This document shows positions 38,573-46,050 of a DNA stretch of 64,000 nt, in pieces (the stretch's first letter is position 1; the number at the start of each line of letters is the position of its first letter). This DNA comes from Escherichia coli (lineage in GTDB: Bacteria; Pseudomonadota; Gammaproteobacteria; Enterobacterales; Enterobacteriaceae). The position numbers were made by a program, and so were the translations under genes. The stretch is from NCBI RefSeq assembly GCF_046105845.1, contig NZ_CP151004.1. One strand, 5' to 3'. The notes under the pieces were generated by a model that ran no database searches, had not been told where the DNA came from, and worked only from the letters and a program-made list of their open reading frames with translations.

Positions 38573-39136
38573 TTAGATTTTACCAACCAGGTCCAGAGAC
38601 GGAGCCAGAGTTGCTTCACCTTCTTTCCATTTAGCCGGGCAAACTTCACCTGGGTGAGAAGCTACGTACTGTGCTGCTTTGATTTTACGCAGCAGGTCAG
38701 ACGCGTCACGGCCAATGCCTTCAGCGGTAACTTCGATTGCCTGGATGATACCCTGCGGGTCAACAACGAAGGTCGCACGGTCAGCCAGACCTTCATCTTC
38801 ACGCATGTTGTCGAAGTTACGGGTCAGGGCGCCAGTCGGGTCGCCGATCATCGCATATTTGATTTTAGCGATGGTTTCAGAGCTGCTGTGCCATGCTTTG
38901 TGGGTGAAATGAGTATCGGTAGATACTGCGTATACGTCTACGCCCAGTTTCTGCAGTTCTTCGTAGTGGTCAGCAACGTCACCCAGTTCGGTCGGGCATA
39001 CGAAAGTAAAGTCAGCCGGGTAGAAGAAGAAGACGCTCCAGCGGCCTTCGGTATCTTTTTCGGTGATTTCGATGAATTCGCCGTTTTTGAATGCCTGGTT
39101 TTTAAAAGGTTTAATTTTGGTGTTAATCAAGGACAT
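38573..39136 (-). CDS. ahpC: Alkyl hydroperoxide reductase subunit C (peroxiredoxin)
   Basis: 187 aa [21 protein letters not shown]...; peroxidatic Cys in FTFVCPTEL. Confidence 0.97.
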
Positions 39137-39507: not shown

Positions 39508-40254
39508 ATGTTAAAAAAGATACTTTTACTGGCTCTGCTTCCTGCAATCGCCTTCGCAGAGGAACTTCCTGATCCAGTAAAAGCGATTGAAAAACAGGGC
39601 ATTACAATCATCAAAACGTTCGATGCTCCCGGAGGAATGAAAGGTTATCTCGGCAAGTATCAGGATATGGGCGTCACCATCTACCTGACTCCAGATGGTA
39701 AGCACGCTATCTCTGGTTACATGTACAACGAGAAAGGTGAAAACCTGAGTAACACACTTATCGAAAAAGAAATTTACGCACCAGCCGGACGCGAAATGTG
39801 GCAACGGATGGAACAATCCCACTGGCTCCTCGACGGTAAAAAAGACGCGCCGGTCATTGTCTACGTCTTCGCCGATCCGTTCTGCCCATATTGTAAACAG
39901 TTCTGGCAGCAGGCTCGTCCGTGGGTAGATTCTGGCAAAGTGCAATTAAGAACATTGTTGGTTGGGGTTATCAAACCAGAAAGCCCGGCGACAGCAGCGG
40001 CAATTCTTGCCTCCAAAGATCCCGCAAAAACCTGGCAAGAATATGAAGCCTCTGGTGGCAAGCTTAAGCTAAACGTGCCTGCAAACGTAAGTACAGAGCA
40101 AATGAAAGTGTTAAGCGACAACGAGAAACTCATGGACGATCTGGGGGCAAATGTCACACCAGCTATCTATTACATGAGTAAGGAGAATACGCTGCAACAG
40201 GCCGTGGGGTTGCCCGATCAGAAAACGCTTAATATCATTATGGGGAATAAATAA
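39508..40254 (+). CDS. dsbG: Periplasmic disulfide isomerase DsbG
   Basis: 248 aa from [21 protein letters not shown] active site. Confidence 0.9.
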
Positions 40255-40463
40255 AAGGTAATTCATGGATGGTTGAACTATATCCCTGCTTTTCAACCAT
40301 CCTAAAAAAGCATGAATTGCTCGCTCTGCCCTAAGTGGCTGTGCTATTTTAGTAAAACTTAATCCTGAGTTAAGCAAAAAAAAATAATCAATAAAAATAT
40401 ATACGCAAAAAAACATTGATTAAGTGAATATATCATGGAAGAAAAATATAACCGGAGTAGTGT

Positions 40464-41366
40464 ATGGCCAATCTCTACGACTTGAAAAAGTTCGACTTAA
40501 ATCTTCTTGTCATATTTGAGTGTATTTATCAGCATTTAAGCATTAGCAAGGCTGCTGAATCACTATATATCACCCCGTCAGCCGTGAGCCAGTCGTTACA
40601 ACGCTTACGTGCGCAATTTAATGACCCTTTATTCATTCGCTCAGGAAAAGGTATCGCGCCGACGACGACAGGGTTAAATCTGCATCACCATCTTGAGAAA
40701 AATCTCAGAGGCCTTGAACAAACAATTAATATAGTCAATAAGTCCGAACTAAAGAAAAACTTTATTATCTACGGTCCTCAGCTCATTTCTTGCTCTAATA
40801 ATAGTATGCTGATCCGCTGCCTACGGCAAGATGCCTCTGTCGAGATTGAGTGCCATGATATCCTCATGTCAGCAGAGAATGCTGAAGAACTGTTGGTTCA
40901 CCGCAAAGCCGATCTGGTGATCACCCAAATGCCAGTGATCAGCCGTTCCGTCATTTGCATGCCATTGCATACAATTCGCAATACTCTAATTTGTAGTATT
41001 AAGCATCCGCGAATTACTGACAATAGCACTTATGAACAAATTATGGCAGAAGAGTTCACCCAATTAATATCCAAATCAGCAGGAGTTGATGATATTCAAA
41101 TGGAAATAGACGAGAAGTTTATGAATCGCAAAATTTCATTTCGTGGTTCCTCTTTGCTGACAATCATTAATAGCATTGCAGTTACAGATTTACTGGGAAT
41201 AGTCCCCTATGAACTTTATAACTCCCACCGTGACTTTCTTAATTTAAAAGAGATAAAACTAGAACATCCGTTACCTTCAATAAAGCTTTACATTTCCTAT
41301 AATAAATCTTCTTTAAACAATCTGGTGTTCTCACGATTTATTGACCGTCTAAATGAGTGTTTTTGA
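40464..41366 (+). CDS. ybdO: LysR-family transcriptional regulator, uncharacterized
   Basis: 300 aa, N-terminal HTH (LYITPSAVSQSLQRLR); AT-rich gene. Confidence 0.85.
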   Translation: MANLYDLKKFDLNLLVIFECIYQHLSISKAAESLYITPSAVSQSLQRLRAQFNDPLFIRSGKGIAPTTTGLNLHHHLEKNLRGLEQTINIVNKSELKKNFIIYGPQLISCSNNSMLIRCLRQDASVEIECHDILMSAENAEELLVHRKADLVITQMPVISRSVICMPLHTIRNTLICSIKHPRITDNSTYEQIMAEEFTQLISKSAGVDDIQMEIDEKFMNRKISFRGSSLLTIINSIAVTDLLGIVPYELYNSHRDFLNLKEIKLEHPLPSIKLYISYNKSSLNNLVFSRFIDRLNECF

Positions 41367-41512
41367 TATATAACTTCAGACAGCTACTATAACTTTCACC
41401 TATTTATTCACAGCGCGAATGAAAAATAAAACACTCTGCTTTTCAGTGTTTACTTTATAATTAACAGTCTTATCTCACTGATCACCCTGTAACGTTCAGA
41501 GAGCGTCTTCAG

Positions 41513-42733
41513 ATGTCTATTTATAAAATTCCTCTTCCGCTCAATATTCTGGAAGCTGCAAAAGAACGTATTACCTGGACACTTAACACCCTACCCCGCG
41601 TTTGTGTCTCATTTTCTGGCGGCAAAGACTCTGGTTTAATGCTGCATCTGACAGCCGAACTTGCTCGACAAATGGGCAAAAAAATCTGTGTTTTGTTTAT
41701 CGACTGGGAGGCGCAATTCTCTTGCACCATTAACTATGTTCAGTCCCTGCGCGAGTTGTACACCGATGTGATCGAAGAGTTTTACTGGGTTGCGCTCCCG
41801 CTTACGACGCAAAATTCCCTTTCACAATACCAACCCGAATGGCAGTGCTGGGAACCTGATGTCGAATGGGTACGTCAGCCCCCGCAAGATGCGATAACCG
41901 ATCCTGACTTTTTCTCCTTTTACCAGCCTGGCATGACCTTCGAACAATTTGTGCGTGAGTTTGCCGAATGGTTTTCGCAAAAACGCCCGGCGGCGATGAT
42001 GATCGGCATCCGTGCGGATGAGTCCTACAACCGTTTTGTCGCCATCGCCAGTTTAAATAAACAACGTTTTGCCGACGATAAACCCTGGACTACGGCCGCA
42101 CCAGGCGGGCATAGCTGGTACATTTACCCCATTTACGACTGGAAAGTGGCTGATATCTGGACCTGGTATGCAAATCATCAAAGTCTCTGCAACCCACTGT
42201 ATAACCTAATGTATCAGGCAGGCGTTCCTCTGCGTCATATGCGAATTTGCGAACCTTTTGGCCCGGAGCAACGACAAGGATTATGGCTCTATCACGTTAT
42301 CGAACCGGATCGCTGGGCTGCTATGTGCGCACGAGTCAGCGGGGTAAAAAGTGGCGGCATTTACGCCGGACATGACAATCATTTTTATGGTCATCGGAAA
42401 ATCCTCAAGCCCGAACATTTAGACTGGCAGGAGTATGCATTATTGCTACTCAACAGCATGCCGGAGAAAACAGCTGAGCATTATCGCAATAAAATCGCCA
42501 TTTATTTGCACTGGTATCAGAAAAAAGGCATCGAGGTTCCACAAACCCAGCAAGGGGACATTGGCGCGAAAGATATCCCCTCCTGGCGGCGAATATGCAA
42601 AGTTTTACTCAATAACGATTACTGGTGTCGGGCATTATCATTTAGCCCGACCAAAGCGAAGAACTATCAGCGTTATAACGAACGAATAAAAGGAAAACGT
42701 CAGGAATGGGGGATACTATGCAACAACGATTAA
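41513..42733 (+). CDS. ybdN: PP-loop ATPase / PAPS-reductase-like protein (IbrA-like), uncharacterized
   Basis: 406 aa; PP-loop SFSGGKDS motif visible in translation. Confidence 0.85.
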   Translation: MSIYKIPLPLNILEAAKERITWTLNTLPRVCVSFSGGKDSGLMLHLTAELARQMGKKICVLFIDWEAQFSCTINYVQSLRELYTDVIEEFYWVALPLTTQNSLSQYQPEWQCWEPDVEWVRQPPQDAITDPDFFSFYQPGMTFEQFVREFAEWFSQKRPAAMMIGIRADESYNRFVAIASLNKQRFADDKPWTTAAPGGHSWYIYPIYDWKVADIWTWYANHQSLCNPLYNLMYQAGVPLRHMRICEPFGPEQRQGLWLYHVIEPDRWAAMCARVSGVKSGGIYAGHDNHFYGHRKILKPEHLDWQEYALLLLNSMPEKTAEHYRNKIAIYLHWYQKKGIEVPQTQQGDIGAKDIPSWRRICKVLLNNDYWCRALSFSPTKAKNYQRYNERIKGKRQEWGILCNND

Positions 42734-43335
42734 CGCAGGATTTAACCCAATTTCTCGCCAGCTTGCCGGAAGACGATCGCATCAAAGCGATTAATGAAAT
42801 CCGCATGGCGATCCATCAGGTTAGCCCCTTTCGAGAAGAGCCAGTGGATTGCGTTCTGTGGGTTAAAAACAGCCAACTTATGCCTAATGATTACAACCCA
42901 AACAACGTGGCACCACCCGAAAAAAAACTGCTGAAAAAATCCATTGAAATAGATGGTTTTACCCAACCCATTGTGGTCACGCATACGGATAAAAATGCCC
43001 TGGAAATCGTGGATGGTTTTCACCGCCATGAAATTGGTAAAGGCTCATCATCGTTAAAATTACGCTTAAAAGGTTATTTGCCGGTGACCTGTCTGGAAGG
43101 TACGCGTAATCAACGCATCGCCGCGACTATTCGTCATAATCGCGCCCGTGGACGTCACCAAATCACTGCCATGTCAGAAATCGTCCGTGAACTCAGCCAG
43201 TTGGGATGGGACGATCATAAAATCGGCAAAGAGCTGGGAATGGACGGCGACGAAGTGCTGCGCCTGAAGCAAATTAACGGCCTGCAAGAACTGTTTGCCG
43301 ACCGTCAATTTTCCCGCGCCTGGACGGTTAAATAA
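42706..43335 (+). CDS. ybdM: ParB-like nuclease-domain protein (IbrB-like), uncharacterized
   Basis: 209 aa; IVDGFHRH ParB/Srx-type motif; 28-bp overlap with ybdN. Confidence 0.8.
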   Translation: MGDTMQQRLTQDLTQFLASLPEDDRIKAINEIRMAIHQVSPFREEPVDCVLWVKNSQLMPNDYNPNNVAPPEKKLLKKSIEIDGFTQPIVVTHTDKNALEIVDGFHRHEIGKGSSSLKLRLKGYLPVTCLEGTRNQRIAATIRHNRARGRHQITAMSEIVRELSQLGWDDHKIGKELGMDGDEVLRLKQINGLQELFADRQFSRAWTVK

Positions 43336-44496
43336 CTACAGCTGGCGCAGGCGTTCAGCTGCTGCCAGCAACGTCGATTCCTTCTTGGCAAAACAGAGAC
43401 GAATCAGTTTATGGGGGAAGGGATCGGCGCAAAACACCGACAGCGGAATCGCCGCTACACCGTGCTCCCGCGTCAGCCACTGGCAAAACTCAACGTCATC
43501 CAGGGTAGAAACCGCGCTGTAATCCACCAGCAAAAAGTATGTACCTTCACACGGTAAAATCTCCAGCCGGCTTTCATTTAAAGCATTCACCAGAATATCG
43601 CGTTTCTGGCGATAAAAGTCCGGTAACGCAAGATAATGCTCAGGTTCTGCACGTAGCATATCCGCAAGTGCCAGCTGTGCCGGGGTATTCACCGAAAAGG
43701 TCAGATACTGGTGTACCTTGCGAATTTCAGCGCTGATGGGCGCTGGCGCAACGCAATAACCCACTTTCCAGCCGGTCATATGATAGGTCTTGCCAAATGA
43801 AGAAACTGCCACCGCCCGCTCACGCAGCTGCGGATGCGCCAGCACGCTGGCATGGCCCTGTTGTGAAAAGTTGATGTGCTCGTAAACTTCATCGCTAATG
43901 ACAAAAATCTCGTGCCCGCCGATCGCCTGCCACAGAGCGGAGAAATCAGCCTGCTGCCAGACAGTTGCACTGGGGTTATGCGGGGTGTTGAGGATCACCA
44001 GTCGGGTGCGCTCGCTTAACAATGCGGCAAATTCCTGCCAGTCCACGCGAAAATGCGGTGGTTGCAGTGCAATACGTTTCACTATTCCCCCCGAAAGCGC
44101 GATGGCGGGCGCGTAACTGTCATAGCTGGGATCAAAGCAGATCACTTCATCACCATTGCGCACCAATGCGGTAATCGCTGCATATAACGCTTCCGTCGCC
44201 CCTGCCGTTACGGTGATATCGCTATCGGCATCCGGTTGATAGCCATACAGACGTTCCGTTTTCTGAGCAATCGCCTCGCGCAAGGCCTGCACGCCAGTCA
44301 TAGGCGCGTATTGGTTTGCCCCCTGGGCAACGTGGTACGCCAGCCGCTCTTGTAAATAGCGCGGACCATCAAAATCAGGAAAGCCTTGCGAAAGGTTAAT
44401 CGCCTGGTGTTGCTGCGCCAGCGCGCTCATCTGGGTGAAAATAGTGGTGCCAAGTTGTGGAAGTTTGCTTTGTGGAATCAGAGGGTTATTTGTCAT
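43336..44496 (-). CDS. ybdL: PLP-dependent methionine aminotransferase
   Basis: 386 aa; fold-type I aminotransferase with SFGKT PLP-lysine motif. Confidence 0.9.
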   Translation of the reverse strand: MTNNPLIPQSKLPQLGTTIFTQMSALAQQHQAINLSQGFPDFDGPRYLQERLAYHVAQGANQYAPMTGVQALREAIAQKTERLYGYQPDADSDITVTAGATEALYAAITALVRNGDEVICFDPSYDSYAPAIALSGGIVKRIALQPPHFRVDWQEFAALLSERTRLVILNTPHNPSATVWQQADFSALWQAIGGHEIFVISDEVYEHINFSQQGHASVLAHPQLRERAVAVSSFGKTYHMTGWKVGYCVAPAPISAEIRKVHQYLTFSVNTPAQLALADMLRAEPEHYLALPDFYRQKRDILVNALNESRLEILPCEGTYFLLVDYSAVSTLDDVEFCQWLTREHGVAAIPLSVFCADPFPHKLIRLCFAKKESTLLAAAERLRQL

Positions 44497-44604: not shown

Positions 44605-45693
44605 ATGCCTCACAATCCTATCCGCGTGGTCGTCGGCCCGGCTAACTACTTTTCACATCCAGGAAGTTTCAATCACCTGCACGATTTTTTCACTGATGAA
44701 CAGCTTTCTCACGCGGTGTGGATCTACGGCGAACGCGCCATTGCTGCGGCGCAAACAAAACTTCCGCCAGCGTTTGAACTGCCAAGGGCAAAGCATATTT
44801 TGTTTCGCGGCCATTGCAGCGAAAGCGATGTACAACAACTGGCGGCTGAGTCCGGTGACGATCGCAGCGTGGTGATTGGCGTCGGCGGCGGCGCACTGCT
44901 CGACACCGCGAAAGCCCTCGCCCGCCGTCTCGGTCTGCCGTTTGTTGCCGTTCCGACGATCGCCGCCACCTGCGCCGCCTGGACACCGCTCTCCGTCTGG
45001 TATAACGATGCCGGACAGGCGCTGCATTATGAGATTTTCGACGACGCCAATTTTATGGTGCTGGTGGAGCCAGAGATTATCCTCAACGCGCCGCACCAAT
45101 ATCTGCTGGCGGGGATCGGTGACACGCTGGCGAAATGGTATGAAGCGGTGGTGCTGGCTCCGCAACCAGAAACGTTGCCGCTAACCGTGCGGCTGGGGAT
45201 CAATAATGCGCAGGCCATTCGCGACGTCTTGTTAAACAGTAGCGAACAGGCGCTGAGCGATCAGCAAAAACAACAGTTAACGCAATCATTTTGCGATGTG
45301 GTGGATGCTATTATTGCTGGTGGTGGGATGGTCGGTGGTCTGGGCGATCGTTTTACGCGTGTGGCGGCGGCCCATGCCGTGCATAACGGTCTGACCGTTT
45401 TGCCGCAAACCGAGAAGTTTCTCCACGGCACCAAAGTCGCCTACGGAATTCTGGTGCAAAGCGCCTTGCTGGGTCAGGATGATGTGCTGGCGCAATTAAC
45501 AGAGGCGTATCAGCGTTTTCATCTGCCGACTACGCTGGCGGAGCTGGAAGTGGATATCAATAATCAGGTGGAGATCGACAAAATGATTGCCCACACCCTA
45601 CGTCCAGTGGAATCCATTCATTACCTGCCAGTCACGCTGACACCAGATACCTTGCGTGCAGCGTTCGAAAAAGTGGAATCGTTTAAAGCCTGA
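44605..45693 (+). CDS. ybdH: Iron-containing alcohol dehydrogenase family protein (hydroxycarboxylate dehydrogenase)
   Basis: 362 aa; GVGGGALLDTAK glycine-rich motif. Confidence 0.88.
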   Translation: MPHNPIRVVVGPANYFSHPGSFNHLHDFFTDEQLSHAVWIYGERAIAAAQTKLPPAFELPRAKHILFRGHCSESDVQQLAAESGDDRSVVIGVGGGALLDTAKALARRLGLPFVAVPTIAATCAAWTPLSVWYNDAGQALHYEIFDDANFMVLVEPEIILNAPHQYLLAGIGDTLAKWYEAVVLAPQPETLPLTVRLGINNAQAIRDVLLNSSEQALSDQQKQQLTQSFCDVVDAIIAGGGMVGGLGDRFTRVAAAHAVHNGLTVLPQTEKFLHGTKVAYGILVQSALLGQDDVLAQLTEAYQRFHLPTTLAELEVDINNQVEIDKMIAHTLRPVESIHYLPVTLTPDTLRAAFEKVESFKA

Positions 45694-45702
45694 CGTACAC
45701 AT

Positions 45703-45900
45703 TTAGCAGCAGCGCGCGCCGCCTTTTCCACCGTAGCGCGCGTCCTGCCGCTCACGGAAAAACTCCTCGTAGGTCATCGGCGTTTGATCGGGATGGTTAA
45801 CCCGCATATGTTCGACATAGTTGTCGTAATCAGGCATACCAATCATCAGCTTCGCCGCCTGACCTAAATATTTTCCGGCTTTTGCCAGTGAATCAAACAT
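45703..45900 (-). CDS. ybdD: Small DUF466 protein downstream of cstA
   Basis: 65 aa from [19 protein letters not shown]...; conserved pairing with cstA. Confidence 0.85.
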
Positions 45901-45959
45901 CAATACCTCCGGTAAACAGGTTGCTGATAGAGTGCATTAATAGCTATCAACGCGCTCGG

Positions 45960-46050
45960 TCAGTCCCCTCGCCCCACAGGAGAGAGGGTTAGGGTGAGGG
46001 GGAACCCTCGGCACCATGCCAACATTCGCCAACATCCCCCCTCACTCTGA
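45960..46050. repeat. GC-rich repeat element in the ybdD-cstA spacer
   Basis: Three copies of a CCCCTC(A/G)CC(CC) motif in direct and inverted orientation (45965-45975, 46001-46012 inverted, 46036-46047). Confidence 0.4.

Follow-up and report, generated by a model that had tools for sequence, protein, structure and literature searches.

What reaction do ybdN and ybdM carry out, given that they are among the few conserved core genes of Escherichia coli K-12 with recognisable catalytic domains and no known reaction? We addressed this question in a window of 64,000 nucleotides from an E. coli chromosome (contig NZ_CP151004.1 of RefSeq assembly GCF_046105845.1), in which both genes lie on the plus strand behind a LysR-type regulator gene, citR (ybdO). 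The locus citR(ybdO)-ybdN-ybdM is an annotated K-12 locus (b0603-b0601 in that strain) with published regulation and is already known. The object singled out in the original prediction is real and was correctly described, yet it is not a new object, since databases and papers already record both the family to which it belongs and how it is regulated. By architecture, full-length similarity and gene pairing, the sequences of YbdN and YbdM assign them to the IbrA/IbrB family, and the locus is the form of this module that the Enterobacteriaceae at large carry on the chromosome, together with a repressor of its own. Tentatively, and with somewhat less than even confidence, we read the two proteins as a pair of phage origin that would transfer an adenylyl group to DNA or otherwise modify it without the use of sulfur, and in which YbdM would position or drive YbdN.

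YbdN, a PP-loop protein without sulfur-handling cysteines

The ybdN gene (41,513-42,733, plus strand) encodes a PP-loop ATP pyrophosphatase domain (residues 30-234) followed by DUF3440 (residues 237-383), which is the architecture of the IbrA family. The Pfam search that the original prediction had proposed matched PAPS_reduct (PF01507, 1.2e-13) and DUF3440 (PF11922, 5.1e-23 and 2.2e-6) over these residues and ParB_N (2.8e-4) in YbdM, and the two motifs picked out beforehand, SFSGGKDS in YbdN and IVDGFHRH in YbdM, lie within the conserved domains. YbdN also matched phrog_2302 over residues 2-387 (E 4.5e-77) and is 56.9% identical, over 99% of its length, to the protein annotated as IbrA in Escherichia phage PhiR5_2. 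In the translated open reading frame (ORF), SFSGGKDS occupies residues 33-40 (41,609-41,632, plus strand), and its reading as a PP-loop signature holds, with G37, K38 and S40 invariant and S35, G36 and D39 at least 90% conserved among 61 diverse homologues. Because the motifs of both proteins are made of invariant or near-invariant columns within Pfam domains, they are catalytic-site signatures and not chance strings. The homologue alignment also revealed conservation of D64/E66, of a GxRxDESxxR motif and of a Trp-rich insert (residues 95-140) with W110, W113 and W119.

No cysteine is invariant among the 61 homologues, and those at positions 94, 112, 246, 362 and 372 form a mosaic; a three-cysteine Fe-S site in a YbdN subfamily was considered and discarded, as C246, C362 and C372 do not co-occur. 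Because it has no conserved cysteine and scores far under the curated cut-offs, YbdN is neither a phosphoadenosine phosphosulfate (PAPS) reductase nor a DndC. As a CysH-type PAPS or adenosine phosphosulfate (APS) reductase it reached 35.5 bits against a cut-off of 254.2 (TIGR02057), 34.3 against 154 (NF002537) and 25.1 against 165.1 (TIGR00434), and the conserved C-terminal catalytic cysteine of that family is missing. Scores as CysD were 18-25 bits against cut-offs of 195-413. As DndC it obtained 22.3 against 290.4 bits (TIGR03183), and the PADLOC models of DndC (21.9 bits) and BrxP (18.5 bits) matched partial stretches only.

The nearest solved folds and profile matches are CysD/CysN ATP sulfurylase and FAD synthase (1zun, 2.6e-10; 8rom, 1.7e-9), with PAPS reductase also related, and all of these nearest solved relatives act at the alpha-phosphate or bind AMP-sulfate. 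Only the N-terminal ~230 residues of YbdN align with the solved CysD and FAD synthase folds. Several long YbdN homologues (P0243, P0296, P0310, P0377 and P0355) offered no informative domain fusion, their extensions appearing low-complexity or chimeric. Judged from these comparisons, the PP-loop of YbdN is intact, belongs to the adenylyl-transfer clade and comes without sulfur-handling cysteines, and YbdN is predicted to be a PP-loop enzyme directed at the alpha-phosphate of ATP, rather than a PAPS reductase or a phosphorothioation or thiolation enzyme of known type.

YbdM, a distinct ParB/sulfiredoxin family

The ybdM gene (42,706-43,335, plus strand) encodes a protein whose AlphaFold2 model (predicted local distance difference test score, pLDDT, 89.7) shows an N-terminal helical hairpin (residues 1-40), a ParB/sulfiredoxin domain (residues ~45-150) and a three-helix helix-turn-helix (HTH, residues ~153-196), the hairpin being found in some lineages only. 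The fold resembles a ParB/sulfiredoxin domain joined to a KorB/ParB-type HTH, and also sulfiredoxin, SbnI and SerK. YbdM matched phrog_2159 (2.8e-68) and is 57% identical to IbrB of phage PhiR5_2, and with the similar value for IbrA and the shared architecture the suggested kinship with IbrA/IbrB is confirmed. The family is strikingly conserved: the E. coli protein shares 44-57% identity with Firmicute, Bacteroidete and phage proteins, and mean column identity from E. coli to Firmicute phages is 41%.

Across 55 sequences from many phyla and phages, YNPN, E72, D103, G104 and R107 are invariant and the HTH is almost so. The string IVDGFHRH (residues 101-108; 43,006-43,029, plus strand) contains the phosphate-binding DGxHR motif of the ParB/sulfiredoxin fold and lines up with the box that reads GERR in Noc and ParB; as it lies within ParB_N and includes three of the invariant residues, its designation as a ParB/sulfiredoxin-type motif was right. 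A second motif, RHNRARGxH (residues 143-151; 43,132-43,158, plus strand), is specific to the family and stands at the place of box III in ParB CTPases, with R143, H144, N145, R146, A147, R148, G149 and H151 invariant in the same 55 sequences. YbdM therewith carries the features of the IbrB family, namely an N-terminal ParB/sulfiredoxin domain with YNPN, DGxHR and RHNRARGxH and a C-terminal HTH.

An N-terminal ParB/sulfiredoxin fold followed by an HTH is likewise the arrangement of ParB/Spo0J, Noc and KorB. A role as a partition-type ParB CTPase was nevertheless rejected: box I reads YNPN in YbdM against QPR in ParB/Spo0J, Noc, KorB and VirB, box II reads DGFHR against GERR, RHNRARGxH takes the place of the box III sequence ENLQRE, the score with TIGR00180 is 15.8 against 58.45 bits, and there is no ParA/parS context. 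At 209 residues, the protein stops after its HTH and has no C-terminal dimerisation domain. Because box III and this domain are missing, YbdM is distinct from the partition CTPases, and its sequence argues for a separate ParB/sulfiredoxin family. Sulfiredoxin, SerK and SbnI differ from YbdM in that they are single-domain or otherwise extended proteins that act on proteins or small molecules and have no HTH, whereas YbdM has a predicted DNA-binding domain and an obligate PP-loop partner. According to the model, YbdM joins a predicted nucleotide-binding ParB/sulfiredoxin domain to a predicted DNA-binding HTH.

An obligate pair in genomes and phages

We then compared the loci that encode such proteins in a genome scan restricted to one genome per species (80 loci), which spans Proteobacteria, Firmicutes, Bacteroidetes, Verrucomicrobia, Heimdallarchaeota and others. 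An IbrB-like gene adjoins the IbrA-like gene in 79 of the 80 genome loci, the lone exception being cut by a contig end, and in 73 of 80 viral loci from a scan of viral contigs. In our window the IbrB-like gene is adjacent to and co-oriented with ybdN, and the two overlap by exactly 28 nucleotides (42,706-42,733), the 3' end of ybdN lying over the 5' end of ybdM, just as predicted. This overlap suggests translational coupling. In homologous pairs the two genes typically overlap, or are separated, by a few nucleotides. A second in-frame ATG at 42,718 would cut the overlap to 16 nucleotides; the start at 42,706 is favoured because the Pseudocitrobacter orthologue has no Met matching that ATG. Genes of the ybdN and ybdM kinds are an obligate pair, and the earlier view of ybdN-ybdM as a coupled two-gene unit is borne out by the pairing across genome and viral loci.

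Relatives of YbdN amounted to 1,686 cluster representatives at E<=1e-3, and 224 deposited phage records encode one. In Escherichia phage PhiR5_2 the module, annotated IbrA/IbrB, sits after two antirepressor genes, and phage annotations name these genes 'co-activator of prophage gene expression'. The module lies between lysis and early genes in Streptococcus and Lactobacillus phages, between lysin and integrase in a Clostridium prophage, and inside a replication/recombination region with primase, helicase, YqaJ and RecT in a Microcystis phage. In Microcystis phage Mwe-JY13 both ORFs upstream are annotated as ParB/sulfiredoxin. Other viral arrangements were found in IMG/VR contigs, either IbrB (220-260 residues), a small ORF of ~140 residues and IbrA, or a long IbrB of 380-400 residues followed by IbrA.

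A protein with SNF2-rel_dom and Helicase_C domains (phrog_62) is encoded directly upstream of the pair in 16 of the 80 genome loci and is present in 22 of the 80 viral loci. Large genes downstream of IbrA/IbrB loci are unrelated to one another, and the other neighbours are heterogeneous. Eleven Bacteroidetes loci share a conserved protein of ~140 residues, whose gene immediately precedes that of the IbrA homologue in the same orientation; its resemblance to GNAT was faint (E 0.19), PHROG gave no match, and its iterated hidden Markov model retrieved nothing past its 11 members. It may be a lineage-specific third component. As this protein and the SNF2-like helicase are the only candidates and both are lineage-restricted, a conserved third component was rejected for the bacterial loci.

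An adjacent LysR regulator gene is confined to enteric loci (8 of the 80 genome loci). Citrobacter werkmanii carries a syntenic YbdN-type copy (84% identity) and, on another contig, a second IbrA-type copy (58%); paralogous modules therefore coexist in one genome.

Layout, base composition and silencing of the locus

The regulator gene citR (40,464-41,366, plus strand) precedes ybdN, in line with the gene order given originally. Its product matched Pfam HTH_1 (1.7e-18) and LysR_substrate (1.8e-8) and scored 462.9 bits with the NCBIfam CitR equivalog NF047710 (cut-off 400), which identifies it as CitR, the LysR-type repressor of ybdNM. Upstream of it, dsbG ends at 40,254 (plus strand). The block had been drawn from 40,255 to 43,338; its start is indeed the first base past dsbG, and its end reaches 3 nucleotides into ybdL. 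The stop of ybdM ends at 43,335 and the stop codon of ybdL (43,336-44,496, minus strand) begins at 43,336, so the tail-to-tail junction without a spacer was placed exactly; it is kept in Klebsiella and Salmonella, and the ybdM/ybdL pair has been catalogued as a convergent excludon (PMC12288877). Current RefSeq labels in E. coli are citR, 'phosphoadenosine phosphosulfate reductase' for ybdN, 'IbrB-like domain-containing protein' for ybdM, and ybdL.

The whole block had been called AT-rich. This is strongly so for citR and the two spacers beside it: citR has 38.9% GC and a third-position GC content (GC3) of 0.40, the lowest among the 35 long ORFs of the window, and the dsbG-citR spacer (40,255-40,463) and the citR-ybdN spacer (41,367-41,512) have 31.6% and 34.9% GC. 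It does not extend to ybdN and ybdM, which at 47.6% GC each are near dsbG (46.9%) and modestly under the window mean of 51.8%.

The dsbG-citR spacer comprises the citR promoter and silencing region, as ybdO transcription starts 107 nucleotides before the ATG and an upstream regulatory element of H-NS lies in this spacer (PMC4720273). H-NS binds at ybdO and uses elements upstream and downstream to repress it (PMC4720273). CitR has a peak upstream of citR in chromatin immunoprecipitation with exonuclease digestion (ChIP-exo) and represses ybdNM, and deletion of ybdO raised ybdN by 5.5 and ybdM by 2.5 log2 units among 86 altered genes (PMC9068703). The ybdNM pair is normally off because H-NS silences citR and CitR represses ybdNM, and the description 'probably silenced' agrees with both published observations. 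The sulfur-assimilation regulon of CysB (cysDNC, cysJI, cysAWU) and the flagellar regulon were induced alongside ybdNM in the ybdO deletion (PMC9068703, Table 1); this joint rise does not clearly favour any of the models considered below. In E. coli with a blaCTX-M-15 plasmid YbdM protein was 29-fold up, and its overexpression costs ~10% of growth rate (PMC8764527).

Within the citR-ybdN spacer, a dyad AACACT-N9-AGTGTT (41,430-41,450) stands beside a perfect TATAAT (41,456-41,461) with no recognisable -35 element, and on this pattern the dyad is a possible CitR operator and the TATAAT a possible activator-dependent ybdN promoter. A perfect 11-nucleotide inverted repeat, GGATGGTTGAA-N14-TTCAACCATCC, lies at 40,267-40,302, starting 13 nucleotides past the dsbG stop and having no T-run; it could be a terminator-like hairpin of dsbG or a protein-binding site. 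An Rfam scan of 39,900-43,700 gave no match at E<=1, and a promoter and terminator scan found sites no commoner than in shuffled sequence.

Farther out lie ahpC (38,573-39,136, minus strand) and hcxA/ybdH (44,605-45,693, plus strand). The spacer downstream of hcxA (45,816-45,980) is 71-92% identical among the window, strain N21 and K-12, the surrounding genes being 95-99% identical.

An old module under purifying selection

The block was matched in 5,422 of 5,426 complete E. coli genomes, of which 5,321 hold at least 80% of it; about 100 of the 5,422 carry only a part (e.g., strain G8), and truncated forms of YbdM exist in Shigella. The order ahpC-dsbG-LysR-YbdN-YbdM-ybdL, zero spacer included, is common to Klebsiella pneumoniae and Salmonella enterica, and the identical gene order recurs in Citrobacter, Pseudocitrobacter and Superficieibacter. 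Protein identity across these enteric genera is 73-85% with synteny kept. The GC content of ybdN and ybdM tracks that of the host genome (55-60% in Klebsiella, 50% in Salmonella), unlike that of the LysR regulator gene, which is AT-rich in every host compared. In three divergent E. coli lineages there were no internal stops, and the ratio of nonsynonymous to synonymous substitution rates (dN/dS) was 0.03-0.04 for ybdN and 0.05-0.09 for ybdM, a range similar to that of the flanking housekeeping genes.

Because of this synteny, host-tracking GC and dN/dS, ybdN-ybdM is an old, resident module maintained by purifying selection, neither newly acquired nor decaying. The proposal of horizontal acquisition stands in an ancient sense only; recent transfer of ybdNM is ruled out by the synteny and the host-tracking GC, together with the presence of the block in nearly all E. 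coli genomes. Gene decay, which the original prediction had named, together with a neutral phenotype, as evidence that would count against it, is ruled out by dN/dS.

The complete E. coli genomes fall into two identity classes at this locus, with 3,632 genomes at 95-99% and 1,754 at 80-90%, while the flanks stay at 95-99% identity in every genome, whichever its class. The divergence is limited to positions ~40,100-41,700 of the window, which cover the 3' end of dsbG, citR, both spacers and the 5' part of ybdN, and the dsbG-citR spacer is the most divergent region. The citR alleles of the two classes are 80% identical in nucleotides and 88% in protein, with a dS of ~2 and a dN/dS of 0.03, and ~1,754 of the 5,422 genomes belong to the class other than that of the window. 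Such deep allele classes match the H-NS-linked diversification of ybdO described in PMC4720273, where it is among the most sequence-diversified H-NS-bound genes of E. coli.

Likeness to known systems

IbrA and IbrB are the immunoglobulin-binding regulators of the E. coli ECOR-9 island, with copies on islands or prophages. They share with YbdNM the two-gene order with overlapping ends and the succession of PAPS_reduct and DUF3440, then ParB_N and HTH. YbdNM differs from IbrAB in that this paralogue belongs to the core chromosome, has a LysR repressor dedicated to it and has no known target of the eib type. Activation of prophage eib genes by IbrAB, the phenotype that gave the family its name, was reported by Sandt et al. 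in 2002, as cited in PMC7649339.

The ParB-superfamily protein and the PAPS-reductase-clade PP-loop ATP pyrophosphatase of DndB/DndC and SspE/SspD resemble the pair and act on DNA (PMC10853773). The analogy with DndC that had been offered fails, however, on the defining cysteines as well as on the model scores given above: YbdN is without the conserved 4Fe-4S and sulfur-relay cysteines of DndC, no DndA, DndD or DndE partner stands beside the IbrA/IbrB loci examined, YbdM matches no DndB model, and the neighbours in the window are ahpC, dsbG, citR and ybdL rather than Dnd, Ssp or BREX partners. DpdA/DpdB is alike in that a DNA-modifying enzyme relies on a ParB-like nucleoside triphosphatase (NTPase) for energy or loading and that the cluster contains helicases (PMC12839542); the catalytic partner there, DpdA, is a transglycosylase and not a PP-loop enzyme, and YbdM is likened to DpdB by role. 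By analogy, YbdNM would work most like the Dnd, Ssp and Dpd systems, in which a DNA-modifying enzyme has a ParB-like partner, yet it does not have the features that define membership of any of them.

CysD/CysN and FAD synthase are alike in that AMP is moved from ATP to an oxyanion, and CysD is driven by an NTPase partner. YbdN differs from both in its Trp-rich insert and its 170-residue DUF3440, and its partner is a ParB/sulfiredoxin protein where that of CysD is a translational-type GTPase.

A proposed mechanism and its alternatives

In the adenylyl-transfer reading that we prefer, YbdM would bind DNA and a nucleoside triphosphate and would position or drive YbdN, which would spend ATP in placing an adenylyl group on an oxyanion of DNA, be it a phosphate or the carbonyl of a base. 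This adenylylation would be the opening step of a covalent modification without sulfur, for which in phages the helicase would supply translocation, and the outcome would be an altered reading of the DNA through silencing, restriction or gene expression. A modification of this kind would explain why IbrAB reportedly activates prophage eib genes. The predicted chemistry of YbdN and the predicted nucleotide- and DNA-binding domains of YbdM are consistent with such a scheme. The obligate pairing and the purifying selection on both genes also speak for it, and the original suggestion that the module acts on nucleic acid or a nucleotide-derived substrate is plausible. Since YbdM is near-invariant across phyla, its enzyme-like conservation is easier to reconcile with a universal substrate than with operators particular to each host, and the SNF2-like helicase partner and the replication/recombination neighbours in phages point to DNA as the target. 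Precedents for a ParB-like partner of a DNA-modifying enzyme are DndB/DndC and SspE/SspD (PMC10853773) and DpdB/DpdA (PMC12839542), and CysD, the closest solved relative of YbdN, works with its NTPase partner CysN (PDB 1zun).

Several points weigh against this proposal. The searchable literature shows no modification, substrate, complex or nucleotide specificity for any family member, and in it we found no mechanistic, biochemical or structural study of IbrA, IbrB, YbdN, YbdM or DUF3440. DUF3440, the helical C-terminal ~170 residues of YbdN, has no solved relative detectable by fold or profile comparison, which leaves the substrate-binding part uninterpreted. Most bacterial loci are without the helicase. 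The sole genetic phenotype reported for IbrAB is that gene expression is activated, and a regulator without enzymatic activity could produce this as well. That deleting ybdO raises the CysB regulon along with ybdNM (PMC9068703) could be a hint of sulfur chemistry.

A broader form of the adenylyl-transfer reading is possible, and we hold it with more doubt: the family would be a widespread, phage-derived, sulfur-free DNA-modification or adenylylation system, in which a ParB/sulfiredoxin-HTH NTPase targets a CysD-like adenylyltransferase, with an SNF2 motor in phages, and the enteric copy would have been domesticated under H-NS and CitR to switch silenced DNA.

The main rival, which we judge unlikely, dispenses with a covalent change of DNA: YbdM/IbrB would be an NTP-switched ParB-like clamp, which like KorB or VirB would spread along DNA and lift the silencing by H-NS, and YbdN/IbrA would load it, modify it or make its ligand. 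VirB is a CTP-dependent anti-silencer. Such a clamp fits eib activation, the sole known phenotype, and the phage label of co-activator; the ybdO locus is itself H-NS-bound DNA (PMC4720273), and the 86 genes changed on ybdO deletion (PMC9068703) are in keeping with it. However, a near-invariant HTH, and indeed a near-invariant IbrB as a whole, across phyla and phages is atypical for a regulator of host sites, and YbdM has neither the box III nor the dimerisation domain at the C-terminus that a clamp needs in order to close. This mechanism also leaves the strictly conserved PP-loop of IbrA and the SNF2 helicase partner without a role.

A part in conflict between phage and host, be it anti-phage defence, exclusion, abortive infection or phage-borne counter-defence, seems to us improbable. 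In this case the task of the pair would be to detect incoming DNA, to damage it or to use up nucleotides, and the patchy, mobile and phage-rich distribution with heterogeneous neighbours suggests as much, as does the placing of the module in temperate phages in the moron region between lysis genes and integrase. ParB-superfamily proteins have been proposed as nucleotide-degrading or nicking conflict effectors (PMC10853773), a PAPS reductase together with ParBc proteins appears among candidate PANGU-related clusters (bioRxiv 10.64898/2026.04.06.716658), and TASmania marked the Listeria pair as a putative toxin-antitoxin system (PMC7020466). Against this, the models of PADLOC-DB 2.0 gave only weak partial matches to DndC, BrxP and MTase_II; the enteric copy is a core, syntenic and silenced locus rather than a variable defence island; virulent phages carry the module too; and YbdM is not strongly toxic, since its overexpression has only the modest growth cost mentioned above (PMC8764527).

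Small-molecule sulfur or nucleotide metabolism, with YbdN acting like a PAPS/APS reductase or sulfurylase and YbdM like a sulfiredoxin or a serine-kinase-type phosphotransferase, is highly improbable. The RefSeq name of ybdN, the fold kinship of YbdN with CysH, CysD and FAD synthase and of YbdM with sulfiredoxin, SbnI and SerK, the CysB response (PMC9068703) and the neighbouring ybdL, which encodes a methionine transaminase, speak for it, but YbdN scores far under the curated cut-offs for PAPS reductase and CysD, its cysteine patterns are mosaic with no conserved catalytic residue, and YbdM bears a predicted DNA-binding HTH. Helicase partners and phage replication modules are likewise settings foreign to it, and the adjacency of ybdL is convergent and limited to enterics. 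That the locus is what is left of an old mobile element, decaying and without function, which persists only because it is silenced (PMC4720273, PMC9068703), as the partial loci and the truncated Shigella YbdM might suggest, can scarcely be credited and is largely refuted already by the selection analysis, by the identity and synteny across genera and by catalytic motifs that are all intact.

Significance

Our analysis argues against PAPS reduction, phosphorothioation and thiolation, establishes the obligate partnership of the two genes and their DNA-related contexts, and identifies the key residues of both proteins. If the pair modifies DNA, this would be a new epigenetic or anti-restriction chemistry and would explain how IbrAB switches on prophage genes.

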